Below, one piece after another: positions 5,965 through 28,742 of a stretch of 64,000 nucleotides of DNA (within the stretch, counting starts at the first letter, position 1; every line of letters starts with the position of its first letter). The notes under the pieces were generated by a model. The model did not search any database, was not told where the DNA came from, and saw only the letters and a list, made by a program, of their open reading frames with translations. The stretch lies in the NCBI RefSeq assembly GCF_058153355.1, contig NZ_CM177019.1; one strand, 5' to 3'. Made by a program: the position numbers and the translations under genes.

Positions 5965-7815
5965 ATGGCCTTATTACAAATTAGTGAACCTGGTTTGAGT
6001 GCTGCGCCGCATCAGCGTCGTCTGGCGGCCGGTATTGACCTGGGCACAACCAACTCGCTGGTGGCGACAGTACGCAGCGGTCAGGCCGAAACGTTAGCCG
6101 ACCATGAAGGCCGTCACCTGCTGCCCTCTGTTGTTCACTATCAACAGCAGGGGCATTCGGTGGGTTATGACGCGCGCACTAACGCAGCGCTTGACACCGC
6201 CAACACCATTAGTTCTGTTAAACGCCTGATGGGGCGCTCGCTGGCTGATATCCAGCAACGCTACCCGCATTTGCCTTATCAATTCCAGGCCAGCGAAAAC
6301 GGCTTGCCGATGATTGAAACAGCAGCGGGATTGCTGAATCTGGTGCGCGTTTCTGCGGACATCCTCAAAGCACTGGCGGCGCGGGCAACTGAAGCCCTGG
6401 CAGGCGACTTGGATGGTGTCGTTATCACCGTTCCGGCGTACTTTGACGATGCCCAGCGTCAGGGCACCAAAGACGCGGCGCGTTTGGCTGGGCTGCATGT
6501 TCTGCGCTTGCTTAACGAACCGACCGCTGCGGCTATCGCCTACGGACTGGACTCCGGTCAGGAAGGCGTGATCGCTGTTTATGACCTCGGTGGCGGGACG
6601 TTTGATATTTCCATTCTTCGCTTAAGTCGCGGCGTGTTCGAAGTGCTGGCGACCGGCGGTGATTCCGCGCTCGGCGGCGATGACTTTGACCATCTGTTAG
6701 CAGATTACATTCGCGAACAGGCGGGCATTCCTGACCGTAGCGATAACCGCGTTCAGCGTGAACTGCTGGATGCCGCCATTGCGGCCAAAATCGCGCTGAG
6801 CGATGCGGACTCTGTGACCGTGAATGTTGCGGGCTGGCAGGGTGAAATCAGCCGTGAACAATTCAATGAACTGATCGCGCCATTGGTAAAACGAACCTTA
6901 CTGGCTTGTCGTCGTGCGCTGAAAGACGCGGGCGTAGAAGCTGATGAAGTGCTGGAAGTGGTGATGGTTGGTGGTTCTACCCGCGTGCCGCTGGTGCGTG
7001 AACGGGTGGGTGAATTTTTCGGTCGTCCACCGCTGACTTCCATCGACCCGGATAAAGTCGTCGCTATTGGCGCGGCGATTCAGGCGGATATTCTGGTGGG
7101 TAACAAGCCGGACAGCGAAATGCTGTTGCTTGATGTGATCCCGCTGTCGCTGGGCCTCGAAACCATGGGTGGCCTGGTGGAGAAAGTGATCCCGCGTAAC
7201 ACCACAATTCCGGTGGCGCGCGCCCAGGATTTCACCACCTTTAAAGATGGTCAGACGGCGATGTCTATCCATGTAATGCAGGGCGAGCGTGAACTGGTGC
7301 AGGACTGTCGCTCGCTGGCGCGTTTTGCGCTGCGTGGTATTCCGGCGCTACCGGCTGGCGGCGCGCATATTCGCGTAACGTTTCAGGTCGATGCTGATGG
7401 TCTTTTGAGCGTGACGGCGATGGAGAAATCCACCGGCGTTGAGGCGTCTATTCAGGTTAAACCGTCTTATGGTCTGACCGACAGTGAAATCGCCTCGATG
7501 ATCAAAGACTCAATGAGCTATGCCGAGCAGGACGTAAAAGCCCGTATGCTGGCTGAACAAAAAGTAGAAGCGGCGCGTGTGCTGGAAAGTTTGCACGGCG
7601 CGCTGGCTGCTGATGCCGCGCTGTTAAGCGCCGCAGAACGTCAGGTCATTGACGATGCTGCCGCTCACCTGAGTGAAGTGGCGCAGGGCGATGATGTTGA
7701 CGCCATCGAACAAGCGATTAAAAACGTAGACAAACAAACCCAGGATTTCGCCGCTCGCCGCATGGACCAGTCGGTTCGTCGTGCGCTGAAGGGCCATTCC
7801 GTGGACGAGGTTTAA
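5965..7815 (+). CDS. hscA: Hsp70-type chaperone HscA
   Basis: ATG at 5965 gives 616 aa [11 protein letters not shown]...; Hsp70 signatures ([16 protein letters not shown]). Confidence 0.95.
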
Positions 7816-8541: not shown

Positions 8542-9825
8542 ATGACAGAAGCGATGAAGATTACCCACTCGACCCAACCTGCCGACGCGCGCTGGGGAGA
8601 AAAAGCGACTTACAGCATTAATAATGATGGTATTACCCTGCATTTGAACGGGGCAGACGATCTGGGGCTGATCCAGCGTGCGGCGCGCAAGATTGACGGT
8701 CTGGGTATCAAGCATGTTCAGCTAAGCGGTGAAGGCTGGGATGCGGATCGTTGCTGGGCATTCTGGCAAGGTTACAAAGCCCCGAAAGGCACGCGTAAAG
8801 TGGAGTGGCCGGATCTGGACGATGCCCAGCGTCAGGAACTGGATAACCGCCTGATGATCATCGACTGGGTGCGTGACACCATCAACGCACCAGCAGAAGA
8901 ACTGGGGCCATCGCAACTGGCACAGCGTGCTGTTGATCTGATCAGCAACGTCGCAGGCGATCGTGTGACTTACCGGATCACCAAAGGTGAAGATCTTCGT
9001 GATCAAGGTTATATGGGGCTGCACACTGTCGGGCGTGGTTCAGAACGTTCCCCGGTATTGCTGGCGCTGGATTACAACCCAACTGGCGATAAAGAAGCGC
9101 CGGTGTACGCGTGCCTGGTAGGTAAAGGCATCACCTTTGATTCCGGCGGCTACAGCATCAAACAGACCGCGTTTATGGACTCAATGAAGTCTGACATGGG
9201 CGGTGCGGCAACGGTTACCGGGGCGCTGGCATTTGCCATTACGCGCGGTCTGAACAAGCGTGTGAAGCTGTTCCTCTGCTGTGCGGATAACCTGATTAGC
9301 GGCAACGCGTTCAAACTGGGGGATATCATTACCTATCGCAACGGTAAAAAAGTCGAAGTCATGAACACCGATGCGGAAGGGCGTCTGGTTCTGGCAGATG
9401 GCCTGATTGACGCCAGTGCGCAGAAACCGGAACTGATTATCGATGCCGCGACACTCACCGGTGCGGCGAAAACCGCGCTGGGTAATGATTATCACGCGCT
9501 GTTCAGTTTTGACGATGCATTGGCCGGTCGCCTACTGGAGAGTGCCGCCCAGGAGAACGAACCGTTCTGGCGTCTGCCGCTGGCGGAGTTCCACCGTAGC
9601 CAGCTGCCATCTAACTTTGCGGAACTGAACAATACCGGAAGCGCGGCGTATCCGGCGGGTGCAAGTACGGCGGCGGGCTTCCTGTCGCACTTTGTTGAGA
9701 ACTATAAACAAGGTTGGCTGCATATCGACTGTTCGGCGACTTACCGTAAAGCACCGGTTGAACAGTGGTCTGCGGGTGCGACCGGGCTGGGTGTGCGCAC
9801 GATTGCTAATCTGTTAACGGCGTAA
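8542..9825 (+). CDS. pepB: peptidase B (M17 leucyl aminopeptidase family) PepB
   Basis: Conserved start [10 protein letters not shown] at 8542 (427 aa); M17 motif NTDAEGRL present. Confidence 0.9.
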
Positions 9826-9833
9826 ACTAATAT

Positions 9834-9935
<102 letters not shown>

Positions 9936-9967
9936 GTGCCCCGAACGTTGAATGAATTGTGGTTCTT

Positions 9968-10744
9968 ATGTCCGAAACAAAAAACGAACTTGAAGACCTG
10001 CTGGAAAAAGCAGCAACCGAACCGGCGCACCGCCCGGCCTTTTTCCGTACTCTACTGGAATCCACTGTCTGGGTACCAGGTACGGCGGCGCAGGGCGAGG
10101 CAGTGGCTGAAGATAGCGCGCTTGATTTACAGCACTGGGAAAAAGAAGACGGTACTAGCGTCATTCCTTTTTTCACCTCGTTAGAAGCACTGCAACAGGC
10201 GGTCGACGGCGAACAGGCGTTTGTCGTAATGCCCGTTCGCACACTGTTTGAGATGACCCTTGGCGAAACGCTCTTCCTTAATGCCAAATTGCCAACCGGT
10301 AAAGAGTTTATGCCGCGTGAAATCAGTTTGTTGATTGGTGAAGAAGGAAATCCGCTGAGCAGTCAGGAAGTACTGGAAGGCGGTGAATCGCTGATATTAT
10401 CGGAAGTCGCAGAGCCGCCAGCACAAATGATTGATTCACTTACCACCTTATTTAAAACCATTAAGCCGGTGAAGCGTGCTTTTATTTGTTCAATTAAAGA
10501 GAACGAAGAGGCACAGCCTAATTTACTTATTGGCATTGAAGCCGATGGCGATATCGAAGAAATTATTCAGGCGGCGGGAAGTGTAGCGACCGATACATTA
10601 CCTGGTGATGAACCAATAGATATTTGCCAGGTGAAAAAAGGGGAAAAAGGAATTAGCCACTTTATTACCGAACATATTGCGCCATTCTATGAACGTCGCT
10701 GGGGTGGATTCCTGCGTGATTTTAAACAGAATCGAATAATTTAA
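9968..10744 (+). CDS. sseB: SseB (enhanced serine sensitivity protein B)
   Basis: ATG at 9968 gives 258 aa MSETKNELEDLL...; matches remembered SseB N-terminus and K-12 synteny. Confidence 0.8.
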   Translation: MSETKNELEDLLEKAATEPAHRPAFFRTLLESTVWVPGTAAQGEAVAEDSALDLQHWEKEDGTSVIPFFTSLEALQQAVDGEQAFVVMPVRTLFEMTLGETLFLNAKLPTGKEFMPREISLLIGEEGNPLSSQEVLEGGESLILSEVAEPPAQMIDSLTTLFKTIKPVKRAFICSIKENEEAQPNLLIGIEADGDIEEIIQAAGSVATDTLPGDEPIDICQVKKGEKGISHFITEHIAPFYERRWGGFLRDFKQNRII

Positions 10745-10779
10745 AATATGCCGCCCCAAAGGGCGGCATTCGGGCTTAC

Positions 10780-11190
10780 TTGCTGTTCTGAAGGTTGTTA
10801 ACCATCAGTAAATTGTTGCCGGAGGGACTCCGGTTATTATTTACTTCGGAAAACAGCGCACCAGAAACAATAAGTACGATACAGAAGTACCGTATCTTCA
10901 TTGTGCGGTCCATGCGAAGACCGCATCACGACAGCACCACTGGCGATATTGCCGCGATAGCAAGCGCTGAGACGCGCTTGCCCTAACGGTCGCGGAACAT
11001 CCTTTCCTTAAGCCAGCGCCCGCTTGCGAGACGGCGGAAAGGGCCACAGTGGATAATACACTAACAGAACAATAATAACTCTCTTTTGCTTGACAGAAAG
11101 AGAGTTACTGGCGAGTATTGTCTTCGCTGAGACGCGCTTGCATTACTACGGTAATACAACCTGCTGGAAAGGCCGCGAACCAGACCAGCA
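10780..11190. ncRNA. candidate ryfA-family small-RNA locus (strand and ends unresolved)
   Basis: ~490-nt non-coding spacer between sseB and sseA with several strong stem-loops (e.g. 11-bp stem at 11076..11107) and an exact 17-nt repeat (10965..10981 and 11125..11141). In K-12 an sRNA (ryfA) is, to my recollection, annotated between sseA and sseB. Confidence 0.3.
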
Positions 11191-11222
11191 ATAAAAAACC
11201 GCCAAATTCGGCGGTTTTTTAT
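11191..11222. terminator. bidirectional rho-independent terminator
   Basis: aaaaaaccgccaaattcggcggtttttt: GC stem flanked by an A-run and a T-run, immediately 3' of sseA (minus strand). Confidence 0.7.
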
Positions 11223-11236
11223 TGCCTGTAAAAAGC

Positions 11237-12082
11237 TTATTTCTCTGGCTCAACCGGTAAATCGGCCCGTGCGCCCCATTCACTCCATGCGCCGTCGTAT
11301 AGTTTCACGTTTGGCACATCCAGCGTCGCGAGTGCTAACAAAACCACGGCTGCCGTTACACCAGAACCGCAACTGACGATAATTGGTTTGTCGTAGCTGA
11401 CACCGCGACCAAAAAATATCGCATCCAGTTCATCGGTCGTTTTTAGTTCGCCTTCTCGTACTAGTTCTGTTCACGGAACGTTCAACGCGCCGGGAATGTG
11501 CCCGCGACGTAAACCTGGGCGAGGTTCATCAACTTCTGCATTAAAACGTGCAGCCGGGCGGGCATCAATAATTTGCGCCGTATTTTCATGGCTTGCCAAT
11601 AACACATCGGTTACTTTCACCACAGCCTCAGGATTAAACGCAGCGTTAAACTCACCTTCTGGCAGCGCTACTGCACCTTCTTCTAATAGCAGATCATCAC
11701 GCTGCCAGCCTGCAAGTCCACCACCCAGAATCGACACTTTCTCTACACCAAAGGTGCGCAGCATCCACCATGCGCGTGGGGCTGAGAAAAGATTACCTTC
11801 GTCATAGACAATCAGGTGCTTATCCTGGTTAACGCCTAACTCACGCATTGCAACGGCGAACGTTTCCGGGCGCGGCAGCATGTGCGGAAGCGGGGAATTG
11901 TGATCAGAAAGCGTTTCGATATCGAAAAACACTGCGCCGGGAATATGTCCATTCAGATACTCCTGGGCAACGTTACGATCTTCCTGTCCAGGCGGTGCCA
12001 TGCGGGCATCGATAATCTGAATTTCCGGGTCATCAATATGTTCGGCGAGCCAGTCGGCTCCTACAAACCATGTCGTGGACAT
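11237..12082 (-). pseudogene. sseA: 3-mercaptopyruvate sulfurtransferase SseA, interrupted by an in-frame TGA
   Basis: ORF stops at TGA (complement of 11471..11473) after ...HIPGALNVP. The same frame continues without further stops for 77 codons (TELVREGELKTTDELDAIFFGRGVSYDKPIIVSCGSGVTAAVVLLALATLDVPNVKLYDGAWSEWGARADLPVEPEK*), including the rhodanese active-site CGSGVT. Confidence 0.8.
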
Positions 12083-12287
12083 AGGCATCTCCATTTTTGC
12101 CGGGTTAGGCTAAATTGTCGGATGTTTAGTGAAAAGCGACAAGCAAAAGAGGCTGATTTGGCTGTCTGAGCCACAATTCTCACTAAAATTCGGATTCCAT
12201 GGGCGCGATACTGAATTACATAACGTAAATTCTCACGCATAATAATTATTCGACGTTGCTAACGGGCCATTGTGGCAGGGATGAAAA

Positions 12288-15200
12288 ATGAAAAAGTTAC
12301 GCGTAGCCGCCTGCATGCTAATGCTGGCGCTGGCAGGGTGCGACAACAACGATAACGCGCCAACAGCGGTGAAAAAAGATGTACCTTCTGAAGTTACTAA
12401 AGCGGCATCTTCAAAAAATGCGAGTTCAGCAAAACTCTCTGCACCGGAGCGACAAAAACTGGCACAACAGAGTGCCGGTAAGGCGCTGACATTGCTGGAT
12501 CTCTCTGAAGTCCAACTCGATGGCGCAGCCACGCTGGTGCTGACCTTCTCTATCCCTCTCGACCCGGATCAGGATTTCTCGCGCGTTATTCACGTCGTTG
12601 ATAAAAAAAGCGGCAAAGTGGATGGGGCCTGGGAGCTGTCAGATAATCTTAAAGAGCTGCGTTTACGCCACCTCGAGCCGAAACGTGATTTGATCGTTAC
12701 TATTGGCAAGGAGGTCAAGGCACTCAACAACGCAACCTTCAGTAAAGATTACGAAAAAACTATAACTACCCGCGATATCCAGCCCAGCGTCGGTTTTGCC
12801 AGCCGTGGTTCGCTGCTGCCTGGAAAAGTCATTGAAGGGCTGCCGGTAATGGCGCTCAATGTTAACAATGTCGATGTTAACTTCTTCCGTGTTAAGCCAG
12901 AATTTCTGCCAGCATTTATTAGCCAATGGGAATACCGAAATTCGCTGGCGAACTGGCAGTCAGACAAACTGCTGCAAATGGCGGATCTGGTTTATACCGG
13001 ACGTTTTGATCTCAATCCTGCGCGTAACACCCGTGAAAAATTATTGCTGCCGCTGGGTGATATCAAACCGCTTCAGCAGGCGGGTGTGTATCTGGCTGTG
13101 ATGAATCAGGCTGGACGTTACGATTACAGTAATCCCGCGACGCTGTTTACATTAAGTGATATCGGCGTATCGGCCCACCGTTATCACAATCGTCTGGATA
13201 TCTTTACCCAAAGCCTGGAAAACGGCGCGGCCCAGCAAGGAGTTGAAGTCTCATTATTAAATGAGAAAGGGCAGACTCTGACTCAGGCAACCAGTGATGC
13301 CCAGGGGCATGTGCAGCTGGAAAATGATAAAAACGCGGCATTACTGTTGGCGCGTAAAGACGGTCAGACAACGCTACTCGATTTAAAACTTCCGGCGCTG
13401 GACTTAGCAGAATTTAACATTGCTGGCGCGCCAGGCTATAACAAACAGTTTTTCATGTTTGGCCCGCGCGATCTTTATCGCCCGGGTGAAACAGTCATCC
13501 TTAATGGTTTATTGCGTGATGCAGACGGTAAAGCGTTGCCCGATCAACCCATCAAGCTGGACGTAATTAAACCCGACGGGCAGGTACTCAGGAGCGTCGT
13601 TAGTCAGCCGGAGAATGGCCTCTATCACTTTACCTGGCCACTCGATAGTAATGCGGCCACCGGCATGTGGCATATCCGAGCCAACACGGGCGATAACCAG
13701 TATCGGATGTGGGATTTCCACGTCGAAGATTTTATGCCAGAGCGCATGGCGCTGAATCTGACCGGTGAGAAAACCCCGCTAACGCCGAAAGATGAAGTGA
13801 AATTCTCCGTGGTGGGTTACTACCTGTACGGGGCGCCTGCTAATGGTAATACTTTGCAAGGGCAACTTTTCCTGCGCCCACTGCGTGAAGCTGTGTCAGC
13901 CTTACCTGGTTTCGAATTCGGCGATATAGCTGCTGAAAACCTTTCGCGCACGCTGGATGAAGTTCAGTTGACGCTGGATGATAAAGGGCGCGGCGAAGTT
14001 TCTACAGAAAGCCAGTGGAAGGAAACGCATTCCCCATTACAGGTTATTTTCCAGGGCAGTTTGCTGGAGTCTGGCGGTCGCCCGGTGACGCGCCGTGCTG
14101 AGCAGGCTATCTGGCCTGCCGATGCATTGCCGGGGATCCGTCCGCAATTCGCCTCGAAATCGGTTTACGATTATCGCACTGACAGTACGGTAAAACAGCC
14201 CATTGTTGATGAAGGCAGTAACGCCGCTTTTGACATCGTTTATAGCGATGCACAGGGCGTGAAAAAAGCTGTGTCTGGCTTACAAGTGCGCCTGATTCGC
14301 GAACGCCGCGATTACTACTGGAACTGGTCAGAAGATGAAGGCTGGCAGTCACAGTTTGATCAAAAAGATCTGATCGAAAATGAACAAACACTGGATCTTC
14401 AGGCTGATGAAACCGGTAAAGTCAGTTTCCCGGTAGAGTGGGGCGCTTATCGTCTGGAAGTCAAAGCGCCGAATGAAGCGGTCAGTAGTGTGCGTTTCTG
14501 GGCTGGCTATAGCTGGCAGGACAATAGCGACGGTAGCGGTGCTGTGCGACCAGACCGTGTCACGCTGAAACTGGATAAAGCCAGTTATCGCCCTGGTGAT
14601 ACCATTAAGTTGCACATTGCCGCGCCAACGGCGGGTAAAGGCTATGCGATGGTCGAGTCCAGTGAAGGGCCGCTGTGGTGGCAGGAGATTGATGTTCCAG
14701 CACAAGGGCTGGATCTGACGATTCCGGTCGATAAAACCTGGAATCGTCATGATCTTTATTTAAGTACGCTGGTGGTACGTCCTGGCGATAAATCCCGCTC
14801 CGCGACGCCAAAACGCGCAGTTGGCGTGTTGCATTTGCCGCTTGGCGATGAAAACCGTCGTCTCGATCTGGCGCTGGAAACTCCAGCGAAAATACGCCCC
14901 AATCAGCCATTAACCGTGAAAATTAAAGCCAGCAATAAAAATGGTGAGATGCCAAAACAGGTGAATGTGCTGGTGTCTGCGGTTGATAGCGGTGTGTTGA
15001 ATATTACTGATTATGTCACGCCAGATCCGTGGCAGGCATTCTTTGGTCAGAAACGCTATGGCGCAGATATTTACGATATTTACGGTCAGGTCATTGAAGG
15101 TCAGGGGCGTCTGGCAGCTCTGCGTTTTGGTGGCGATGGTGATGAACTGAAACGCGGTGGTAAACCGCCAGTAAATCACGTCAATATTGTTGCGCAACAG

Positions 15201-17249
15201 GCGCTACCGGTAACACTCAACGAACAGGGCGAAGGCACGGTTACATTGCCGATTGGTGATTTTAACGGTGAATTGCGCGTCATGGCACAAGCATGGACAG
15301 CAGATGATTTCGGTAGCAACGAAAGCAAAGTGGTTGTTGCCGCACCGGTGATAGCAGAACTGAACATGCCGCGCTTTATGGCCAGCGGTGACACCTCACG
15401 TCTGACGCTGGATATCACTAATCTTACCGATAAACCGCAAAAACTGAACGTTGCTCTGACCGCCAGTGGCTTGCTTGAACTGGTTAGCGATTCACCCGCA
15501 GCCGTTGAATTAGCGCCGGGCGTGCGAACCACGCTGTTTATCCCGGTGCGAGCATTGCCGGGTTATGGTGATGGTGAAATTCAGGCCACTATCAGCGGGT
15601 TAGCGTTACCGGGTGAAACCGTTGCCGATCAGCATAAGCAGTGGAAAATGGGTGTCCGTCCGGCATTTCCGGCACAAACCGTCAATTACGGTACGGCGTT
15701 GCAGCCTGGTGAGACATGGGCGATTCCAGCTGATGGATTGCAAAACTTCTCGCCTGTTACGCTGGAAGGGCAATTGTTGTTGAGCGGCAAACCACCGTTG
15801 AATATTGCACGTTATATCAAAGAGTTAAAAGCGTATCCGTACGGTTGTCTGGAGCAAACCGCCAGCGGCCTGTTCCCGTCACTTTACACCAACGCAGCCC
15901 AACTGCAGGCGTTGGGAATCAAAGGCGACAGTGATGAGAAGCGCCGTGCGGCAGTCGATATCGGCATTTCTCGTTTACTGCAAATGCAACGTGATAACGG
16001 TGGCTTTGCGCTGTGGGATAAAAACGGTGATGAAGAGTACTGGCTGACGGCTTACGTGATGGATTTCCTGGTCCGCGCAGGTGAGCAGGGTTACAGCGTG
16101 CCGACAGAAGCCATTAACCGGGGGAATGAGCGTCTACTGCGCTATTTACAAGATCCGGGCATGATGTCGATTCCGTATGCGGATAATCTCAAAGCCAGTA
16201 AATTCGCCGTACAGTCTTACGCTGCGCTGGTGCTGGCCCGTCAGCAAAAGGCACCGCTGGGTGCGCTGCGTGAAATCTGGGAGCATCGTGCCGATGCTGC
16301 GTCTGGATTACCGCTGCTGCAACTTGGCGTTGCGCTGAAAACCATGGGCGATGCAACGCGTGGTGAAGAAGCGATTGTGCTGGCGCTGAAAACGCCGCGC
16401 AATAGTGATGAGCGGATATGGCTGGGTGATTACGGTAGTCCACTGCGCGACAACGCATTGATGCTCTCCTTGCTGGAAGAGAACAAATTGCTACCCGATG
16501 AGCAGTACCCTCTGCTGAACACACTTTCGCAGCAGGCGTTCGGTGAACGCTGGTTATCAACTCAGGAAAGTAACGCGCTGTTCCTGGCTGCCCGTACGAT
16601 TCAGGATTTACCGGGCAAATGGCAGGCGCAAACGTCTTTCTCTGCTGAGCTGCTGACAGGTGAGAAAGCGCAAACCAGCAATCTGAATAGCGATCAACTT
16701 GCCACCTTACAGGTGACCAACAGTGGCGATCAGCCGTTATGGCTGCGTGTGGATGCCAGCGGATATCCGCAATCCGCCCCTTTACCGGCGAGCAATGTGC
16801 TGCAAATCGAGCGCCATATTCTTGGCACTGACGGTAAGAGCAAATCGCTGGATTCGTTACGTAGCGGCGATCTGGTACTGGTCTGGTTGCAGGTCAAAGC
16901 CAGTAACAGCGTGCCGGATGCTTTGGTCGTTGATTTACTGCCTGCGGGCCTGGAACTGGAAAACCAGAACCTGGCTAACGGCAGCGCCAGCCTGGAGCAA
17001 AGTGGTAGCGAAGTGCAAAACCTACTCAGTCAAATGCAACAAGCGAACATTAAGCATATTGAGTTTCGTGACGATCGCTTTGTGGCGGCGGTTGCCGTTG
17101 ATGAATATCAACCAGTCACGCTGGTGTATCTGGCGCGGGCGGTAACGCCGGGAACATACAATGTTCCGCAACCAATGGTGGAATCGATGTATGTTCCCCA
17201 CTGGCGGGCGACTGGCGCGGCTGAAGATCTGTTGATTGTCAGACCGTAA
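12288..17249 (+). CDS. yfhM: alpha-2-macroglobulin family lipoprotein YfhM (ECAM)
   Basis: 1653-aa ORF with lipobox (LALAGC) and thioester motif CLEQ (GCLEQTAS); intact. Confidence 0.9.
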   Translation: MKKLRVAACMLMLALAGCDNNDNAPTAVKKDVPSEVTKAASSKNASSAKLSAPERQKLAQQSAGKALTLLDLSEVQLDGAATLVLTFSIPLDPDQDFSRVIHVVDKKSGKVDGAWELSDNLKELRLRHLEPKRDLIVTIGKEVKALNNATFSKDYEKTITTRDIQPSVGFASRGSLLPGKVIEGLPVMALNVNNVDVNFFRVKPEFLPAFISQWEYRNSLANWQSDKLLQMADLVYTGRFDLNPARNTREKLLLPLGDIKPLQQAGVYLAVMNQAGRYDYSNPATLFTLSDIGVSAHRYHNRLDIFTQSLENGAAQQGVEVSLLNEKGQTLTQATSDAQGHVQLENDKNAALLLARKDGQTTLLDLKLPALDLAEFNIAGAPGYNKQFFMFGPRDLYRPGETVILNGLLRDADGKALPDQPIKLDVIKPDGQVLRSVVSQPENGLYHFTWPLDSNAATGMWHIRANTGDNQYRMWDFHVEDFMPERMALNLTGEKTPLTPKDEVKFSVVGYYLYGAPANGNTLQGQLFLRPLREAVSALPGFEFGDIAAENLSRTLDEVQLTLDDKGRGEVSTESQWKETHSPLQVIFQGSLLESGGRPVTRRAEQAIWPADALPGIRPQFASKSVYDYRTDSTVKQPIVDEGSNAAFDIVYSDAQGVKKAVSGLQVRLIRERRDYYWNWSEDEGWQSQFDQKDLIENEQTLDLQADETGKVSFPVEWGAYRLEVKAPNEAVSSVRFWAGYSWQDNSDGSGAVRPDRVTLKLDKASYRPGDTIKLHIAAPTAGKGYAMVESSEGPLWWQEIDVPAQGLDLTIPVDKTWNRHDLYLSTLVVRPGDKSRSATPKRAVGVLHLPLGDENRRLDLALETPAKIRPNQPLTVKIKASNKNGEMPKQVNVLVSAVDSGVLNITDYVTPDPWQAFFGQKRYGADIYDIYGQVIEGQGRLAALRFGGDGDELKRGGKPPVNHVNIVAQQALPVTLNEQGEGTVTLPIGDFNGELRVMAQAWTADDFGSNESKVVVAAPVIAELNMPRFMASGDTSRLTLDITNLTDKPQKLNVALTASGLLELVSDSPAAVELAPGVRTTLFIPVRALPGYGDGEIQATISGLALPGETVADQHKQWKMGVRPAFPAQTVNYGTALQPGETWAIPADGLQNFSPVTLEGQLLLSGKPPLNIARYIKELKAYPYGCLEQTASGLFPSLYTNAAQLQALGIKGDSDEKRRAAVDIGISRLLQMQRDNGGFALWDKNGDEEYWLTAYVMDFLVRAGEQGYSVPTEAINRGNERLLRYLQDPGMMSIPYADNLKASKFAVQSYAALVLARQQKAPLGALREIWEHRADAASGLPLLQLGVALKTMGDATRGEEAIVLALKTPRNSDERIWLGDYGSPLRDNALMLSLLEENKLLPDEQYPLLNTLSQQAFGERWLSTQESNALFLAARTIQDLPGKWQAQTSFSAELLTGEKAQTSNLNSDQLATLQVTNSGDQPLWLRVDASGYPQSAPLPASNVLQIERHILGTDGKSKSLDSLRSGDLVLVWLQVKASNSVPDALVVDLLPAGLELENQNLANGSASLEQSGSEVQNLLSQMQQANIKHIEFRDDRFVAAVAVDEYQPVTLVYLARAVTPGTYNVPQPMVESMYVPHWRATGAAEDLLIVRP

Positions 17250-19551
17250 ATGCCTCGCCTGTTAACCAAACGCGGCTGCTGGATCACGCTGGCAGCTGCG
17301 CCCTTTCTCCTTTTTTTTGCCGCGTGGGGAGCAGATAAACTCTGGCCCCTGCCATTGCATGAAGTCAATCCCGCACGCGTAGTCGTGGCGCAGGATGGTA
17401 CGCCACTCTGGCGTTTCGCCGATGCTGAGGGCATCTGGCGCTATCCGGTAACCATCGAAGATGTCTCTCCGCGTTACCTTGAAGCACTGATCAATTATGA
17501 AGATCGCTGGTTCTGGAAGCATCCGGGGGTGAATCCATTCTCGGTGGCGCGCGCAGCATGGCAAGATCTCACTTCGGGACGGGTTATTTCCGGCGGCAGC
17601 ACACTCACCATGCAGGTTGCTCGTCTGCTTGATCCTCACCCCAAAACTTTTGGCGGCAAAATTCGCCAGCTCTGGCGCGCGTTTCAACTGGAATGGCACT
17701 TGTCTAAACGTGACATTCTGACCTTGTATCTTAATCGCGCTCCGTTTGGTGGTACGTTGCAGGGGATCGGTGCGGCAAGCTGGGCATATCTCGGAAAATC
17801 GCCTGCGAATTTAAGCTATTCCGAGGCGGCAATGTTAGCGGTGTTACCGCAAGCGCCCAGCCGACTGCGTCCGGATCGCTGGCCGGAACGTGCCGAGGCC
17901 GCACGTAATAAAGTGCTCAATCGGATGGCTGCGCAAGGTGTGTGGTCCCGTGAGCAGGTAAAAGAATCTAGTGAAGAGCCCATCTGGTTGGCACCCCGAC
18001 AAATGCCGCAACTGGCACCGCTGTTTTCGCGAATGATGCTCGGTAAAAGTAAAAGCGACAAAATCGTTACTACGCTGGATGCTGGTTTACAGCGTCGTCT
18101 GGAAGAACTGGCGCAAAACTGGAAAGGACGATTGCCACCGCGCAGTTCGTTGGCAATGATCGTTGTTGATCATACTGATATGAGTGTGCGCGGCTGGGTA
18201 GGATCGGGATGATTCCCGCTTTGGGCATGTCGATATGGTCAATGCGATCCGATCGCCGGGATCGGTACTCAAACCGTTTGTTTATGGTCTGGCGCTGGAT
18301 GAAGGCTTGATCCACCCTGCATCGCTGTTGCAAGACGTTCCCCGGCGCACTGGTGATTATCGACCAGGCAACTTTGACAGCGGTTTTCATGGCCCGATCA
18401 GCATGAGTGAGGCGCTGGTGCGCTCGCTGAATTTACCTGCTGTGCAGGTGCTGGAAGCCTATGGACCGAAACGGTTTGCGGCAAAGTTACGCAATGTTGG
18501 ATTGCCGTTATATTTGCCCAACGGTGCTGCACCGAATCTTTCGCTCATTCTCGGCGGCGCAGGTGCAAAACTGGAGGATATGGCTGCAGCGTATACCGCA
18601 TTTGCTCGCCACGGTAAGGCGGGTAAGTTGCGCTTACAGCCGGGGGACCCATTACTTGAGCGACCGTTAATGTCGCCGGGGGCCGCGTGGATTATCCGCC
18701 GAATTATGGCAGATGAAGCGCAGCCGCTTCCGGATGGCGCTTTGCCACGCGTCGTACCACTGGCGTGGAAAACAGGAACCAGTTATGGCTATCGCGATGC
18801 ATGGGCTATTGGCGTTAACGCTCGTTACGTAATTGGGATCTGGACTGGCAGACCGGACGGTACGCCCGTTGTCGGTCAGTTTGGCTTTGCCAGCGCCGTA
18901 CCGCTGTTGAATCAGGTCAATAATATCTTACTGTCGCGCAGTGCGAATCTGCCGGAAGACCCGCGTCCTGATTCTGTAAGCCGTGGCGTTATCTGCTGGC
19001 CGGGTGGGCAATCATTGCCAGAAGGTGACAGTAATTGCCGCCGTCGTCTTGCCACCTGGTTGCTCGAAGGTAGCCAGCCACCAACATTACTTTTACCGGA
19101 GCAGGAAGGAATAAGTGGGATTCGTTTCCCCATCTGGCTTGATGAGCAAGGTAAACGTGTTGCTGCTGATTGTCCTCAGGCTCGACAAGAAATGATTAAT
19201 GTCTGGCCATTACCACTTGAACCCTGGCTACCTGCTGCTGAACGACGAGCAGCGCGCTTACCTGGGGCATCAACAAATTGCCCGCCGTATGGTCGTGATG
19301 CTCAGGTACCTTTACAGTTGATTGGTGTGCGTAATGGCGTAATTATCAAACGTCTGCCAGGAGCTACTGATGCGTCATTACCAGTACAATTAAGCGGAGG
19401 AACAGGCGAACGCTGGTGGTTTCTTAATGGTGAACCGTTAGCTGAACGCGGGCGTAACGTGACTCTGCATTTGACAGAGAAAGGCGATTATCAATTACTG
19501 GTAATGGACGAAATGGGGCAGGTCGCGACGGTGAGATTTGTCATGCAGTAG
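17250..19551 (+). pseudogene. pbpC: penicillin-binding protein 1C (PbpC) split by a frameshift
   Basis: Two adjacent ORFs in different frames: 17250..18212 (transglycosylase GT51 domain, EDRWFWKHPGVNP) and 18235..19551 (transpeptidase, SPGSVLKP SxxK motif). The second frame read upstream gives ...DDSRFGHVDMVN back to a stop at 18199..18201, so the shift lies in 18199..18213. Confidence 0.8.
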
Positions 19552-19699
19552 TCTGTTTTGCCATGCTTTGTTGCTTAAACTCGGTTTATTTTAAAAAAAT
19601 GTTACCTTCATCAATAGTCAACGGCCCTGTTGCTCATTATAATCCGCGCCATCTCGTACGCTGGTACAGACAACAACAGAATAATTTACAGAGGTAAAA

Positions 19700-20131
19700 A
19701 TGGCTATTGAACGTACTTTTTCCATCATCAAACCGAACGCGGTAGCAAAAAACGTCATTGGCAATATCTTTGCGCGCTTTGAAGCTGCAGGGTTCAAAAT
19801 TGTCGGCACCAAAATGCTGCACCTGACCGTTGAACAGGCTCGTGGCTTTTATGCTGAACACGATGGAAAACCGTTCTTTGATGGTCTGGTTGAATTCATG
19901 ACCTCTGGCCCGATCGTGGTTTCCGTGCTGGAGGGTGAAAACGCCGTTCAGCGTCACCGCGATCTGCTGGGCGCGACCAATCCGGCAAACGCACTGGCCG
20001 GTACTCTGCGTGCTGATTACGCTGACAGCCTGACCGAAAATGGTACCCACGGTTCTGATTCCGTCGAATCTGCCGCTCGCGAAATCGCTTATTTCTTCGG
20101 CGAAGGCGAAGTGTGCCCGCGCACCCGTTAA
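19700..20131 (+). CDS. ndk: nucleoside diphosphate kinase
   Basis: 143-aa [18 protein letters not shown]... with catalytic His motif (NGTHGSDS). Confidence 0.95.
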
Positions 20132-20280
20132 TAATTTCGTAAATGCCGCGTGCAAACGTGGCATCCGTGCGCCAGAATTTGTACAATGCAGCGCCCCCGG
20201 ACGAGCAGCCGCTCACCGGGGCGTTTCTTTTTTCAACCCTCCAGGGGCCATAACGTGTAATAACGAGGCCGGAATAGCAT

Positions 20281-21435
20281 ATGTCTGAACAATTAGTCAC
20301 ACCTGAAAACGTCACCACGAAAGATGGAAAAATCAACCTGCTGGATCTCAACCGTCAGCAGATGCGGGAGTTTTTTAAAGATTTAGGTGAAAAACCCTTC
20401 CGCGCCGATCAGGTGATGAAGTGGATGTATCACTATTGCTGCGACAACTTTGATGAGATGACCGACATCAACAAAGTGTTGCGCGGCAAGCTGAAAGAGG
20501 TGGCGGAAATCCGCGCACCGGAAGTGGTTGAAGAACAGCGTTCATCTGACGGCACCATTAAATGGGCGATTGCCGTTGGCGATCAGCGCGTCGAAACGGT
20601 GTATATCCCGGAAGACGACCGCGCCACGCTCTGCGTCTCTTCGCAGGTGGGGTGTGCGCTGGAGTGTAAATTCTGTTCCACCGCCCAGCAGGGCTTTAAC
20701 CGCAACCTGCGGGTATCGGAAATTATCGGCCAGGTGTGGCGTGCGGCGAAAATCGTCGGCGCAGCAAAAGTCACCGGTCAGCGCCCAATCACTAACGTCG
20801 TGATGATGGGTATGGGCGAGCCGCTGCTCAACCTAAACAATGTCGTTCCGGCGATGGAAATCATGTTGGATGACTTTGGTTTTGGTCTGTCTAAACGTCG
20901 CGTGACGCTTTCCACTTCCGGTGTAGTTCCGGCGCTGGATAAACTGGGCGATATGATCGACGTAGCGCTGGCAATTTCCCTGCACGCGCCGAACGACGAA
21001 ATTCGTGACGAAATTGTGCCGATCAACAAAAAGTACAATATCGAAACGTTCCTTGCTGCGGTGCGCCGCTATCTGGAGAAATCTAACGCCAATCAGGGCC
21101 GAGTCACTATTGAATACGTGATGCTTGATCACGTTAACGACGGCACTGAACACGCGCACCAACTGGCGGAGCTGCTGAAAGATACGCCGTGTAAGATCAA
21201 CCTGATCCCGTGGAACCCGTTCCCTGGCGCGCCGTATGGACGCAGCTCAAACAGTCGTATCGACCGTTTCTCTAAAGTGCTGATGAGCTACGGTTTCACC
21301 ACTATTGTGCGTAAAACTCGTGGTGATGATATCGATGCTGCCTGTGGTCAGTTGGCGGGCGATGTTATCGACCGTACGAAACGTACCCTGCGTAAACGAA
21401 TGCAGGGTGAGGCCATCGACATTAAAGCGGTCTGA
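20281..21435 (+). CDS. rlmN: 23S rRNA/tRNA m2A methyltransferase RlmN (radical SAM)
   Basis: 384-aa ORF with radical-SAM Cys motif (CALECKFC). Confidence 0.95.
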
Positions 21436-21443
21436 TAGCCATT

Positions 21444-21482
21444 ACGCCACGGTTACTTTATGTACCGTGGCGTAATCTTTTA
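21444..21482 (+). terminator. rho-independent terminator after rlmN
   Basis: Inverted repeat ttacgccacggt...accgtggcgtaa followed by a T-rich tract. Confidence 0.5.
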
Positions 21483-21719
21483 TGAATGAAGTATTAAGTT
21501 GCAATTGTCTGGTCAATATTAACGGTGCGTTTTTGCTGACTTTAAGGCAGTATGTAACGATGCAACAGTAAGTTAGCCTTAGTGAATGTGGGCTTTGTCA
21601 CGAGCACACAGACGGTCTTATACTGTATGATAACGGTTAACTTAACGGATGTTTCGCGGTGTGGGTGAGCATGATGGTTCACCGGCATCTCAATTCTCAT
21701 TTAAACGTACCTGCAGCGA

Positions 21720-22733
21720 ATGAATACTGAAGCCACGCACGACCAAAATGAAGCACTTACTACCGGCGCTCGCCTGCGTAATGCTCGCGAACAACTAGGA
21801 CTTAGTCAGCAGGCCGTTGCTGAGCGACTTTGCCTGAAGGTTTCCACGGTACGCGACATTGAAGAAGATAAGGCACCTGCCGATCTTGCTTCAACATTCC
21901 TGCGCGGATATATCCGCTCTTATGCGCGTCTGGTACATATTCCAGAAGAAGAACTGCTACCGGGGCTGGAAAAACAGGCTCCACTACGAGCTGCAAAAGT
22001 TGCGCCGATGCAGAGTTTTTCCCTCGGTAAACGCCGCAAAAAACGTGACGGCTGGCTGATGACCTTCACCTGGCTGGTGTTGTTTGTGGTTATTGGCCTG
22101 AGCGGTGCCTGGTGGTGGCAAGACCACAAAGCTCAGCAGGAAGAGATCACTACTATGGCCGATCAATCTTCTGCGGAACTGAGCAGTAATAACGAACAGG
22201 GGCAGAGTGTTCCGTTAGATACGTCGACAACCACAGACCCGACTACGACGTCCACGCCGCCAGCGTCTGTGGATACTACCGCAACTAACACGCAAACACC
22301 TGCCATAACTTCGCCAGCACCAGCTGTTGATTCACAACAGAATGCAGTTGTTTCACCTTCGCAGGCAAATGTTGATACCGCTGCGACCCCGGCACCAACG
22401 GCAACAACAACGCCAGATGGTGCTGCGCCGTTGCCAACCGATCAGGCTGGCGTGACCACGCCGGCGGTTGACCCGAATGCGTTGGTGATGAACTTTACTG
22501 CCGATTGCTGGCTGGAAGTCACTGACGCTACCGGTAAAAAACTGTTTAGCGGTATGCAGCGTAAAGACGGTAATTTGAACTTAACCGGCCAGGCTCCGTA
22601 CAAACTGAAAATTGGTGCGCCAGCCGCAGTACAGATCCAGTATCAAGGGAAACCTGTCGATCTGAGTCGTTTTATCAGAACTAACCAGGTTGCGCGTCTG
22701 ACCCTAAATGCCGAACAATCACCGGCGCAGTAA
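21720..22733 (+). CDS. rodZ: cytoskeleton protein RodZ
   Basis: 337-aa ORF: N-terminal HTH, one TM segment, Pro/Thr-rich linker, C-terminal domain. Confidence 0.9.
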
Positions 22734-22759
22734 CAGACGGGTAACGCGGGAGATTTTTC

Positions 22760-23878
22760 ATGCATAACCAGGCTCCAATTCAACGTAGAAAATCAACACG
22801 TATTTACGTTGGGAATGTGCCGATTGGCGATGGTGCCCCCATCGCCGTACAGTCCATGACCAATACGCGTACGACAGACGTCGAAGCTACGGTCAATCAA
22901 ATTAAGGCGCTGGAACGTGTTGGCGCTGATATCGTCCGTGTCTCCGTACCGACGATGGACGCGGCAGAAGCGTTCAAGCTCATCAAACAACAGGTTAACG
23001 TACCGCTGGTGGCTGATATCCACTTTGACTATCGCATTGCGCTGAAAGTAGCGGAATACGGGGTCGATTGTTTGCGTATTAACCCTGGCAATATCGGTAA
23101 TGAAGAGCGTATTCGCATGGTGGTTGACTGCGCGCGCGATAAAAACATTCCGATCCGTATTGGCGTTAACGCTGGATCGCTGGAAAAAGATCTGCAAGAA
23201 AAGTATGGCGAACCGACGCCGCAGGCGTTGCTGGAATCTGCCATGCGTCATGTTGATCATCTCGATCGCCTGAACTTCGATCAGTTCAAAGTCAGCGTGA
23301 AAGCGTCTGACGTCTTCCTCGCTGTTGAGTCTTATCGTTTGCTGGCAAAACAGATCGATCAACCGCTGCATCTTGGGATCACCGAAGCGGGTGGCGCACG
23401 TAGTGGGGCAGTAAAATCTGCCATTGGTTTAGGCCTGCTGCTGTCTGAAGGCATCGGCGACACGCTGCGCGTATCGCTGGCGGCCGATCCGGTCGAAGAG
23501 ATCAAAGTCGGTTTCGATATTTTGAAATCGCTGCGTATCCGTTCGCGCGGGATCAACTTCATCGCCTGCCCGACCTGTTCGCGTCAGGAGTTTGACGTTA
23601 TCGGTACGGTTAACGCCCTGGAGCAACGCCTGGAAGATATCATCACCCCGATGGACGTTTCGATTATCGGCTGCGTGGTGAATGGACCAGGTGAGGCGCT
23701 GGTTTCTACACTCGGCGTTACCGGCGGCAACAAGAAAAGCGGCCTCTATGAAGATGGCGTGCGCAAAGACCGTCTGGACAACAACGATATGATCGACCAG
23801 CTGGAAGCGCGCATTCGTGCGAAAGCCAGCCAACTGGATGAAGCGCGTCGAATTGACGTTCAGCAGGTTGAAAAATAA
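22760..23878 (+). CDS. ispG: HMBPP synthase IspG (GcpE)
   Basis: 372-aa ORF with Cys motif (CPTCSR) of the [4Fe-4S] enzyme. Confidence 0.95.
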
Positions 23879-23879
23879 T

Positions 23880-23975
23880 AACGTGATGGGAAGCGCTTCG
23901 CTTCCCGTGTATGATTGAACCCGCATGGCTCCCGAAATATTGAGGGGCGCGTTGAGGGTTCATTTTTATATTCAG
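23880..23975 (+). ncRNA. candidate 3'-UTR-derived sRNA (SroE-like) in the ispG–hisS spacer
   Basis: Stem-loop gggaagcgcttcgcttccc directly after the ispG stop. An sRNA from the gcpE–hisS spacer is recalled from K-12; not verifiable from sequence alone. Confidence 0.3.
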
Positions 23976-23988
23976 AAAGAGAATAAAC

Positions 23989-25263
23989 GTGGCAAAAAAC
24001 ATTCAAGCCATTCGCGGCATGAACGATTACCTGCCTGGCGAAACGGCCATCTGGCAGCGCATTGAAGGCACACTGAAAAACGTGCTCGGCAGCTACGGTT
24101 ACAGTGAAATCCGCTTGCCGATTGTAGAGCAGACCCCGCTATTCAAACGTGCGATTGGTGAAGTCACCGACGTGGTTGAAAAAGAGATGTACACCTTTGA
24201 GGATCGCAATGGCGACAGCCTGACCCTGCGCCCTGAAGGGACGGCGGGCTGTGTACGCGCCGGCATCGAGCATGGTCTTCTGTACAATCAGGAACAGCGT
24301 CTGTGGTATATCGGGCCGATGTTCCGTCACGAGCGTCCGCAGAAAGGGCGTTATCGTCAGTTCCACCAGTTGGGCTGCGAAGTTTTCGGTCTACAAGGTC
24401 CTGATATCGACGCTGAACTGATTATGCTCACCGCCCGCTGGTGGCGTGCGCTGGGTATCTCTGAACACGTAACTCTTGAGCTGAACTCTATCGGTTCGCT
24501 GGAAGCACGCGCCAATTATCGCGATGCGCTGGTTGCATTCCTTGAGCAGCATAAAGAAAAACTGGACGAAGACTGCAAACGCCGCATGTACACTAACCCG
24601 TTGCGCGTGCTGGATTCCAAAAATCCGGAAGTGCAGGCCCTTCTCAACGACGCCCCAGCATTAGGTGACTATCTTGACGAGGAATCTCGTGAGCACTTTG
24701 CTGGTCTGTGCAAACTGCTGGAGAGCGCGGGTATCGCTTACACCGTAAACCAGCGTCTGGTGCGTGGTCTGGACTACTATAACCGTACTGTTTTTGAGTG
24801 GGTGACTAACAGCCTCGGTTCCCAGGGCACCGTGTGCGCAGGCGGTCGTTATGACGGTCTGGTGGAACAACTGGGTGGTCGTGCAACACCGGCAGTCGGT
24901 TTCGCGATGGGCCTCGAACGTCTTGTATTGTTAGTTCAGGCCGTTAATCCGGAATTTAAAGCCGATCCTGTTGTCGATATATATCTGGTGGCTTCAGGTG
25001 CTGACACACAATCTGCGGCTATGGCATTAGCAGAGCGTCTGCGTGATGAATTACCGGGCGTGAAACTGATGACCAACCACGGCGGCGGCAACTTTAAGAA
25101 GCAGTTTGCCCGTGCTGATAAATGGGGCGCCCGCGTTGCTGTGGTGCTGGGTGAGTCTGAAGTGGCTAACGGCACAGCAGTAGTGAAGGATTTGCGCTCT
25201 GGTGAGCAAACGGCAGTTGCGCAGGATAGTGTAGCCGCGCATTTGCGCACGTTACTGGGTTAA
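23989..25263 (+). CDS. hisS: histidyl-tRNA synthetase
   Basis: 424-aa ORF (GTG start), class II aaRS motifs. Confidence 0.95.
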
Positions 25264-25280
25264 GGAAGGAGAAGGACAGC

Positions 25281-25901
25281 GTGGAAATTTACGAGAACGA
25301 AAACGACCAGGTTGAAGCGGTTAAACGCTTTTTTGCTGAAAATGGCAAAGCACTGGCTGTTGGGGTGATTTTGGGCGTTGGCGCATTGATTGGCTGGCGC
25401 TACTGGAACAGCCATCAGGTTGATTCTACACGCTCCGCTTCTCTTGCCTATCAAAATGCGGTTACCGCAGTGAGCGAAGGCAAACCGGATAGCATCCCGG
25501 CGGCGGAAAAATTTGCTGCTGAAAATAAAAATACCTATGGTGCGCTGGCTTCTTTGGAACTTGCGCAGCAATTTGTTGACAAAAATGAACTAGAGAAAGC
25601 TGCCACCCAGTTACAACAGGGATTGGCGGACACGAGCGATGAAAATCTCAAAGCCGTGATAAATCTGCGTCTTGCCCGCGTTCAGGTACAGCTCAAGCAG
25701 GCTGATGCCGCGCTGAAAACCCTCGATACCATCAAAGGTGAAGGGTGGGCTGCCATTGTTGCCGACCTGCGTGGCGAAGCATTGCTGAGCAAAGGTGATA
25801 AGCAAGGTGCGCGTAGTGCATGGGAAGCTGGCGTGAAAAGCGATGTTACCCCGGCACTGAGCGAAATGATGCAGATGAAAATTAATAATTTGTCCATCTG
25901 A
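25281..25901 (+). CDS. yfgM: TPR-like membrane protein YfgM
   Basis: 206-aa ORF with N-terminal TM helix; K-12 synteny. Confidence 0.85.
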   Translation: MEIYENENDQVEAVKRFFAENGKALAVGVILGVGALIGWRYWNSHQVDSTRSASLAYQNAVTAVSEGKPDSIPAAEKFAAENKNTYGALASLELAQQFVDKNELEKAATQLQQGLADTSDENLKAVINLRLARVQVQLKQADAALKTLDTIKGEGWAAIVADLRGEALLSKGDKQGARSAWEAGVKSDVTPALSEMMQMKINNLSI

Positions 25902-25911
25902 GAGGGACCCG

Positions 25912-27090
25912 ATGCAATTGCGTAAATTACTGCTGCCAGGACTGCTTTCCGTTACCCTTTTAAGCGGCTGTTCGCTGTTTAACAGCGAAGAAGATGTGGT
26001 AAAGATGTCCCCATTGCCGACCGTTGAAAACCAGTTTACGCCGACCACGGCGTGGAGCACTTCCGTGGGTAGCGGCATTGGCAACTTCTATTCCAATCTT
26101 CATCCGGCACTGGCGGACAACGTTGTCTATGCAGCAGACCGCGCTGGTTTAGTAAAAGCGCTGAATGCGGATGATGGCAAAGAAATCTGGTCTGTCAGTC
26201 TGGCCGAGAAAGATGGCTGGTTCTCTAAAGAGCCTGCATTACTTTCTGGCGGCGTGACCGAGTCTGGCGGACATGTCTACATTGGTAGCGAAAAGGCGCA
26301 GGTTTACGCGCTGAATACCAGCGATGGTACTGTGGCATGGCAAACTAAAGTCGCGGGTGAAGCGCTTTCTCGCCCGGTGGTCAGCGACGGTCTGGTGTTA
26401 ATCCACACCAGTAACGGTCAGTTGCAAGCCCTGAACGAAGCTGACGGCGCTGTCAAATGGACAGTTAACCTCGATATGCCTTCACTCTCTTTGCGTGGCG
26501 AGTCTGCGCCAGCAACGGCTTTTGGTGCGGCCGTCGTGGGTGGCGATAATGGTCGCGTCAGCGCAGTGCTAATGGAACAGGGCCAGATGATTTGGCAGCA
26601 GCGTATTTCCCAGGCGACCGGTTCTACCGAAATTGACCGCCTGAGCGATGTTGACACGACTCCCGTCATTGTTAACGGCGTTGTTTTCGCGCTGGCCTAT
26701 AATGGTAACCTGACGGCGCTTGATCTGCGCAGCGGTCAGATTATGTGGAAGCGCGAACTGGGTTCGGTGAATGATTTCATCGTCGACGGCAACCGCATCT
26801 ATCTGGTCGATCAAAATGACCGGGTGATGGCGTTGACCATTGATGGCGGCGTTACGCTGTGGACACAAAGCGATCTGCTGCATCGCCTGTTGACTTCTCC
26901 GGTGCTGTATAATGGCAACCTGGTGGTAGGTGACAGTGAAGGTTATCTGCACTGGATCAACGTCGAAGATGGTCGTTTCGTTGCCCAGCAAAAAGTTGAT
27001 AGCTCCGGTTTCCAGACTGAACCGGTTGCCGCTGACGGCAAACTGCTGATCCAGGCAAAAGACGGGACTGTGTACTCTATTACACGTTAA
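25912..27090 (+). CDS. bamB: outer-membrane assembly lipoprotein BamB
   Basis: 392-aa ORF with lipobox (LLSGC) and PQQ-like beta-propeller repeats. Confidence 0.95.
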   Translation: MQLRKLLLPGLLSVTLLSGCSLFNSEEDVVKMSPLPTVENQFTPTTAWSTSVGSGIGNFYSNLHPALADNVVYAADRAGLVKALNADDGKEIWSVSLAEKDGWFSKEPALLSGGVTESGGHVYIGSEKAQVYALNTSDGTVAWQTKVAGEALSRPVVSDGLVLIHTSNGQLQALNEADGAVKWTVNLDMPSLSLRGESAPATAFGAAVVGGDNGRVSAVLMEQGQMIWQQRISQATGSTEIDRLSDVDTTPVIVNGVVFALAYNGNLTALDLRSGQIMWKRELGSVNDFIVDGNRIYLVDQNDRVMALTIDGGVTLWTQSDLLHRLLTSPVLYNGNLVVGDSEGYLHWINVEDGRFVAQQKVDSSGFQTEPVAADGKLLIQAKDGTVYSITR

Positions 27091-27107
27091 TCGTCTCTGT
27101 CGTTCAC

Positions 27108-27150
27108 TTTGAAAACGGCTCCTGGACAGGGGCCGTTTTCCTGTTTTTAA
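27108..27150 (+). terminator. rho-independent terminator after bamB
   Basis: aaacggctcctggacaggggccgttttcctgttttt. Confidence 0.5.
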
Positions 27151-27207
27151 CAACGACACGAATATAGCGTGCGTTGTCTGATGATTTATAAAAATGAGGC
27201 TTTAAAC

Positions 27208-28680
27208 ATGGTACCTGTGGTCGCGCTTGTCGGGCGCCCTAACGTAGGAAAATCCACGTTATTTAACCGTCTAACTCGCACCCGAGATGCGCTGGTTGCG
27301 GATTTCCCGGGTCTGACTCGTGACCGTAAGTACGGTCGTGCGGAAATTGAAGGCCGCGAGTTTATTTGTATTGATACCGGCGGGATTGACGGAACAGAAG
27401 ACGGTGTAGAAACCCGCATGGCGGAACAGTCGCTGCTGGCGATTGAAGAAGCGGACGTCGTACTGTTTATGGTGGATGCGCGCGCGGGCCTGATGCCTGC
27501 GGATGAAGCGATTGCTAAACATCTGCGCTCCCGCGAAAAACCGACCTTCCTGGTGGCAAACAAAACCGATGGTCTGGATCCGGATCAGGCCGTTGTTGAT
27601 TTTTATTCGCTCGGTTTAGGTGAAATCTATCCTATCGCCGCGTCTCACGGTCGTGGCGTATTAAGTCTGCTGGAGCACGTGCTGTTGCCGTGGATGGAAG
27701 ATATCGCACCACAAGAAGAAGTGGATGAAGACGCTGAGTACTGGGCGCAATTTGAAGCGGAAGAGAACGGCGAAGAAGAAGAGGAAGACGACTTTGACCC
27801 GCAAAGTCTGCCAATCAAACTGGCGATAGTGGGTCGTCCTAACGTCGGTAAGTCTACACTCACTAACCGTATCCTTGGCGAAGAACGCGTCGTAGTTTAC
27901 GACATGCCGGGCACTACGCGTGACAGTATCTACATTCCAATGGAACGCGATGGGCGTGAGTATGTACTCATTGACACTGCGGGCGTACGTAAACGCGGCA
28001 AAATCACCGATGCGGTAGAGAAATTCTCCGTAATCAAAACATTGCAGGCGATTGAAGATGCCAACGTGGTGATGTTGGTGATTGATGCTCGCGAAGGTAT
28101 TTCCGATCAGGATCTCTCCCTGCTGGGCTTTATTCTCAATAGTGGGCGCTCACTTGTGATTGTAGTGAACAAGTGGGACGGCCTGAGCCAGGAAGTGAAA
28201 GAGCAAGTAAAAGAGACGCTGGACTTCCGTCTGGGCTTTATCGACTTCGCCCGTGTGCATTTTATCTCTGCATTACACGGCAGTGGCGTTGGTAATCTGT
28301 TTGAATCAGTGCGTGAAGCGTATGACAGCTCCACCCGTCGTGTGGGGACATCTATGCTGACGCGTATCATGACCATGGCGGTTGAAGATCACCAGCCGCC
28401 GCTGGTTCGCGGGCGTCGTGTGAAGCTGAAATATGCCCACGCCGGTGGTTACAATCCGCCGATTGTGGTGATTCACGGCAACCAAGTGAAAGACCTGCCT
28501 GATTCGTACAAACGCTACTTGATGAATTACTTCCGCAAGTCTCTGGACGTGATGGGTACGCCGATTCGTATTCAGTTCAAAGAAGGGGAAAACCCATATG
28601 CGAACAAGCGTAACACCCTGACGCCGACCCAGATGCGCAAGCGTAAGCGTTTGATGAAGCATATTAAGAAAAGTAAGTAA
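27208..28680 (+). CDS. der: ribosome-biogenesis GTPase Der (EngA)
   Basis: ATG at 27208 gives 490 aa; two G domains (GRPNVGKST twice) and a basic C-terminus. Confidence 0.95.
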
Positions 28681-28742
28681 TCACTTATCTGGTTTCCCTT
28701 TCCAAACGGAGAGGGAAACTGAACAACAGGCGAGGAGTATTT

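Follow-up and report, generated by a model that had tools for sequence, protein, structure and literature searches.

The sseA gene in this stretch of DNA was found to be interrupted by an in-frame TGA. The locus is best explained, with a probability of roughly 0.88, as a very recent, strain-private null allele that arose from one G-to-A transition, changing Trp204 from TGG to TGA. The window analysed was the whole stretch of 64,000 nucleotides from contig NZ_CM177019.1 (assembly GCF_058153355.1), to which all positions below refer.

Structure and identity of the sseA locus

The gene, which encodes 3-mercaptopyruvate sulfurtransferase, lies on the minus strand at 11237..12082, running from an ATG at 12082..12080 to its natural stop, TAA, at 11239..11237. 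The premature TGA occupies 11471..11473 on the same strand and corresponds to codon 204 of 281, where the ancestral codon was TGG (Trp). Translation of the minus strand bore out what had been read from the letters alone, namely that the TGA (11473..11471) directly follows ...HIPGALNVP and that 77 intact codons then lead to the TAA; the frame as a whole (12094..11237, minus strand) reads ...HIPGALNVP-stop-TELVREG...SCGSGVT...VEPEK-stop. The 203 codons that remain open (11474..12082, minus strand) take in the non-catalytic rhodanese domain at the N-terminus and the linker, and reach ~40 residues into the catalytic domain. The 77 stranded codons (11240..11470, minus strand) encode the remainder of the catalytic rhodanese domain including the CGSGVT loop, within which the codon of the catalytic cysteine, TGC, is found at 11371..11369.

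Only the 5' part of the gene appeared in the list of open reading frames, as a frame of 207 aa at 11471..12094. The gene span of 11237-12094 given by the sequence-only reading held at the stop end and was revised at the start. In the RefSeq annotation of the orthologue the protein begins with MSTTW, which places the start at the ATG at 12082, four codons inside the ATG at 12094, and a Shine-Dalgarno sequence, GGAG (12089..12092, minus strand), is located 6 nt 5' of the ATG at 12082. On the 3' side, folding and sequence indicated an intact intrinsic terminator (hairpin and U-tract) at 11187..11226 on the minus strand, the region 11240..11185 folding at -26.3 kcal/mol (z = -6.74). A consensus terminator scan listed nothing 3' of sseA despite the strong fold and U-tract there, and the fold and sequence were given preference.

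To establish the identity of the gene, the protein was considered with codon 204 repaired. The repaired SseA scored 576.8 bits against the NCBIfam equivalog NF008557 (cutoff 250), with coverage of residues 1-280 of 281, and matched the solved E. coli SseA structure, PDB 1URH, with E = 7.8e-188. If the stop is read through, the protein differs from the crystallised K-12 protein at 5 of 280 aligned residues (~98% identity). Two Pfam Rhodanese domains were located, at residues 9-128 and 163-271. The orthologous span is named sseA in RefSeq, and the E. coli gene order is kept around it (isc operon, pepB, sseB, ryfA/timP, sseA, yfhM, pbpC, ndk). The locus thus showed the full-length match and the conserved genomic context of the SseA family (NF008557), and the translated product lacked the catalytic cysteine. 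This residue is Cys238 counting Met1, or Cys237 by PDB 1URH numbering. The stop at codon 204 falls within the second, catalytic rhodanese domain and precedes Cys238, as had been proposed for the CGSGVT cysteine, and the locus was therefore classified as an sseA pseudogene and not as a functional member of the family.

Origin and age of the stop codon

The mutated base is at position 11471, where G has become A on the coding strand (T on the plus strand). Compared with the closest complete E. coli allele, the gene has four nucleotide differences, one of which is the G-to-A change at 11471. Compared with the intact allele of the sister isolates, it has a single difference over its whole length, at this same position, so that the suggestion of one nonsense change in an otherwise intact gene was confirmed at the nucleotide level. 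The comparison with alleles of related strains that the sequence-only reading had proposed also showed that the sister isolates carry TGG and a 281-aa SseA. The 231 nt 3' of the TGA were base-for-base the same as in the intact sister allele, and the frame past the TGA is therefore not a chance open frame. An exact match to the repaired 281-aa protein was present in NCBI E. coli records.

Two sister sequences from different sources were available for longer comparisons. The Logan contig SRR28786219_7 was aligned with the window over 49.6 kb (9903..59549) and showed just two differences, the base at 11471 and an indel of 11 bp in pbpC. The assembly GCA_015332025.1, aligned over 21 kb, differed at 11471, by the same pbpC indel and by a SNP at 6341. 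Between the two sisters no difference was seen over 15.3 kb, and neither of them differed from the window in 12083..12287, the sseA-yfhM intergenic region that includes the Shine-Dalgarno sequence. As these near-identical sisters carry TGG, the TGA is derived and very recent.

The distribution of the allele was also followed through its neighbour, yfhM. An identical YfhM was found in 14 contigs, shown as five places, and the truncated SseA was seen at only one of the five (SRR31441161_12), the other four having a 281-aa SseA and a 770-aa PbpC; nine of the 14 contigs were grouped as similar to the four intact places, and the counts given are of the five places. A 61-nt search found TGA at codon 204 in none of the six complete E. 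coli genomes that share this allele background, and a 61-mer carrying TGA found it in none of 2277 complete E. coli genomes with a K-12-like background. These recurrence tests cover 2283 complete E. coli genomes; about 3100 others have different local backgrounds. In the contig index, the 203-aa product occurred in one public sample only, SRR31441161, and neither the 203-aa nor the 207-aa fragment had an exact match in the protein-cluster collection. The gene therefore shows what is expected of a nonsense pseudogene, that is, a single in-frame stop and an intact orthologue in near-identical relatives.

The sample SRR31441161 was examined through its Logan contigs. One of these, SRR31441161_12, codes for the 203-aa rhodanese product and has PbpC split; it matches the window at 100% identity across 9903..26212, as does a second contig across 1..9860. 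Based on this identity, the window represents that isolate or an identical clone.

Other private lesions in the window

Two further differences from the sister isolates were found. In pbpC (PBP1C; 17250..19551, plus strand), an 11-bp deletion is present at the 18207/18208 junction, where the sisters have TTGATCTTAAT; no microhomology flanks it. The reading frame is shifted after approximately residue 319, leaving ORFs of 320 and 438 aa, and the 320-aa fragment is on record in SRR31441161 only. The gene for the Fe-S chaperone HscA (hscA, 5965..7815) carries a C-to-T substitution at 6341 (plus strand) that results in P126L. Pro is found at this residue in the relatives and in the nearest complete genome, and the exact P126L protein is again on record in SRR31441161 only. 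All three private changes (6341, 11471 and 18208) thus fall within 11.9 kb of the 55.3 kb compared with the sisters, and each alters a protein. The sister comparison stopped short of 59.5-64 kb, where perM matched only non-sister strains at 97.7-98.9% identity.

That all three changes alter protein is somewhat unusual for purely neutral accumulation, at n = 3. Their density stands in contrast to the identity of the sisters with each other, and the simplest reading is that the isolate carries a recent, unpurged mutational load. A decaying genome of the Shigella type was considered and rejected, as there were no IS insertions, the other compared genes of the window were intact and the sisters were free of the lesions.

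Alternative explanations for the stop codon

It is very unlikely that the strain truly has TGG and that the A at 11471 stems from a sequencing or consensus error or from a minority variant in the culture. The record of the TGA allele in one sample only, and its single-base distance from a common intact allele, would agree with such an artefact. Against it, the separately built Logan assembly of SRR31441161 has the same base in contig SRR31441161_12, more than 26 kb of the Logan contigs being 100% identical to the window, and an assembler-specific error at this position therefore appears unlikely from the sequence comparison; since the Logan assembly may share reads with the source genome of the window, this agreement is no bar to a systematic read error or to a mutation that arose in culture. 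In addition, 11471 is not in a homopolymer, and the isolate reproducibly shows the pbpC deletion and the hscA missense change, which are not typical error types. Less probable still, to the point of being scarcely credible, is deliberate recoding of the UGA, either as selenocysteine or through programmed read-through, that would leave sseA functional. The stop has the leaky context UGA-A (the base 3' of the TGA is A), read-through would restore Trp, and the downstream frame is perfectly intact; the last of these is accounted for by the mutation being so recent that no further decay has set in. Folding of the 63 nt that start with the UGA gave just -5.8 kcal/mol (z = -0.56), and 59 of 200 shuffled sequences did as well; the Rfam search of the window gave no match at the UGA site. 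This agrees with the previous statement that no SECIS-like hairpin is evident and that selenocysteine is unsupported. Moreover, the UGA is neither conserved nor aligned with Cys, the codon being TGG (Trp) in the otherwise identical sisters and in all 2283 testable complete E. coli genomes, and selenocysteine at a Trp site has no rationale. For programmed read-through the stop and a stimulatory context would be conserved, and this stop is private to one sample; with the UGA absent from the relatives, no signal could have co-evolved with it. Only the background leakiness of the UGA-A context applies to the sseA stop.

The remaining alternative concerns how the mutation came about. The stop could belong to a burst or selected set of changes (HscA P126L, SseA W204* and the pbpC 11-bp deletion), with the leaky UGA-A keeping a trickle of authentic SseA. 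Its variants are a hypermutator, a mutagenised or laboratory-passaged strain, error-prone repair of one local tract, or selection favouring the loss of sseA and pbpC. This origin is judged unlikely, also when the variants are taken jointly, although it is the most probable of the alternatives weighed here. The spacing and the protein-altering nature of the three differences speak for it, as does the background of sisters that are identical over 15.3 kb, one of which has no difference from the window in 49.6 kb other than those at 11471 and in pbpC. Both private SNPs are C-to-T on the plus strand, and nonsense changes make up only ~3-5% of the possible substitutions in sseA. However, three events are too few to establish a pattern, and with p about 0.12 they are not significantly clustered in the 55.3 kb compared. 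Among spontaneous changes G:C-to-A:T is the most frequent, and an excess of deleterious changes is to be expected among mutations of very recent date. We know of no functional link between sseA and pbpC, and no metadata or publication was found for the run and assembly accessions of the sample. The preferred explanation is an ordinary one: a spontaneous G:C-to-A:T transition would have turned the Trp204 codon TGG into TGA, and the stop would most simply be one of several recent mutations that have not been purged, and not an adaptation.

Consequences for SseA

The promoter region, Shine-Dalgarno sequence and terminator are untouched, and the sseA mRNA is therefore probably still made. On this transcript, RF2 would terminate at codon 204 and free a 203-residue fragment ending in the middle of the second rhodanese domain. 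As this fragment would lack the active-site loop with the catalytic cysteine and end mid-domain, it is predicted to be non-catalytic, and 3-mercaptopyruvate sulfurtransferase activity would be lost. Restart of translation to give a catalytic fragment was considered and rejected, the first in-frame ATG, GTG or TTG past the stop being at residue 246, beyond the catalytic Cys. Neither a restart nor a recoding signal would thus be expected to rescue the gene.

UGA is the leakiest stop codon in E. coli, and its near-cognate tRNA is tRNA-Trp. K-12 has an unusually weak RF2 variant, and read-through figures from K-12 overestimate those of natural isolates, which probably leak less at UGA; prfB lies outside the window. 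In a K-12 reporter, read-through of UGA by Trp-tRNA-Trp in competition with RF2 was ~2% at 37 C and 4% at 25 C (PMC10570021), and an A 3' of the UGA has been described as a favourable read-through context (Engelberg-Kulka 1981, as cited in PMC9122581). Because the context is UGA-A and the lost codon is Trp, rare read-through would regenerate authentic SseA. From these literature values, a small fraction of ribosomes, probably ~1% or less with wild-type RF2, would insert Trp and complete the full-length protein, and a percent-level trace of wild-type SseA is plausible.

The isolate is accordingly predicted to be without, or nearly without, 3-mercaptopyruvate sulfurtransferase. A delta-sseA mutant grows normally in LB, contains less sulfane sulfur and is sensitive to H2O2 (PMC6401616). 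By analogy, the isolate would be expected to behave as a delta-sseA strain or a strong hypomorph, with normal growth, less sulfane sulfur and more sensitivity to H2O2. In annotation, the appropriate label for the locus is sseA pseudogene with an internal stop, and not a rhodanese protein of 203 or 207 aa. The allele is also a tidy natural case of a nonsense mutation for which background read-through would give back the unaltered wild-type protein. With the frameshift in pbpC and the missense change in hscA, it points to a fresh mutational load in this isolate, and a genome-wide look may be worthwhile.

Other features of the window

Several observations were made at other positions of the window. 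The ryfA sRNA/timP small-toxin locus (10743..11047, minus strand; Rfam RF00126, 309.9 bits) lies just downstream of the sseA terminator, with the timP ORF at 10901..10779 on the minus strand. The segment 10970..11133, in ryfA/timP and the spacer to approximately 11135, shows strong divergence, including indels, between E. coli lineages whose YfhM is the same (the window compared with one other), which suggests a recombination boundary or a fast-evolving spacer. At lower coordinates, the Logan short-read contigs of SRR31441161 and SRR28786219 both break at approximately 9861..9902, and a weak match to a naRNA4/REP-like repeat (9805..9864; 40.3 bits, below the gathering score) adjoins this break, which is probably due to a dispersed repeat.

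An ORF of 2696 aa at 32500..40590 (plus strand), downstream of sinH/sinI, encodes an adhesin with BIg21/InvE_AD repeats and is intact here and in the sisters. Its orthologue in the nearest complete genome, MFDS1019527, is annotated as frameshifted, and the 3' portion (35224..40376) shares only ~89% identity with that genome. A stretch of ~300 bp (40376..40683) separating the adhesin gene from xseA had no alignment to the nearest complete genome. The xseA gene (40635..42011, minus strand) encodes an XseA of 458 aa here and in the sister, compared with 455 aa in other strains, and the C-terminal end differs. Downstream of guaA (45285..45380) there is no insertion in the window, and MFDS1019527 has an integrase and prophage at this site. 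An apparent truncation of hyfR (62299..63888) was rejected, since no stop closes the frame before the window ends and hyfR runs off it.

Comparison with known systems

The locus shares with E. coli SseA (NF008557; PDB 1URH) the tandem rhodanese domains, the CGSGVT active-site loop and the same genomic location and synteny, and departs from it in that codon 204 is TGA and not TGG, so that the product ends at residue 203 without the catalytic cysteine. Bacterial selenoproteins such as fdhF likewise have an in-frame UGA within an enzyme gene whose frame continues; in fdhF the UGA is accompanied by an adjacent SECIS hairpin, whereas the UGA of sseA has no SECIS-like hairpin, is not conserved (the relatives have TGG) and is not at a catalytic Cys/Sec site. 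The sseA stop is private to a single isolate, in contrast to nonsense pseudogenes fixed in a host-restricted lineage. The possibility of trace read-through is reminiscent of the low-level expression of the 'pseudo-pseudogene' in Salmonella (PMC9122581). There is also a likeness to ordinary bacterial nonsense pseudogenes, in which a gene left intact in close relatives has acquired an in-frame stop through a G-to-A change. The sseA allele differs from these in that read-through would remake the exact wild-type protein, since the lost codon is Trp. The locus is thus an ordinary nonsense pseudogene, private to one strain, of a gene that is dispensable and well characterised, with nothing new in kind.
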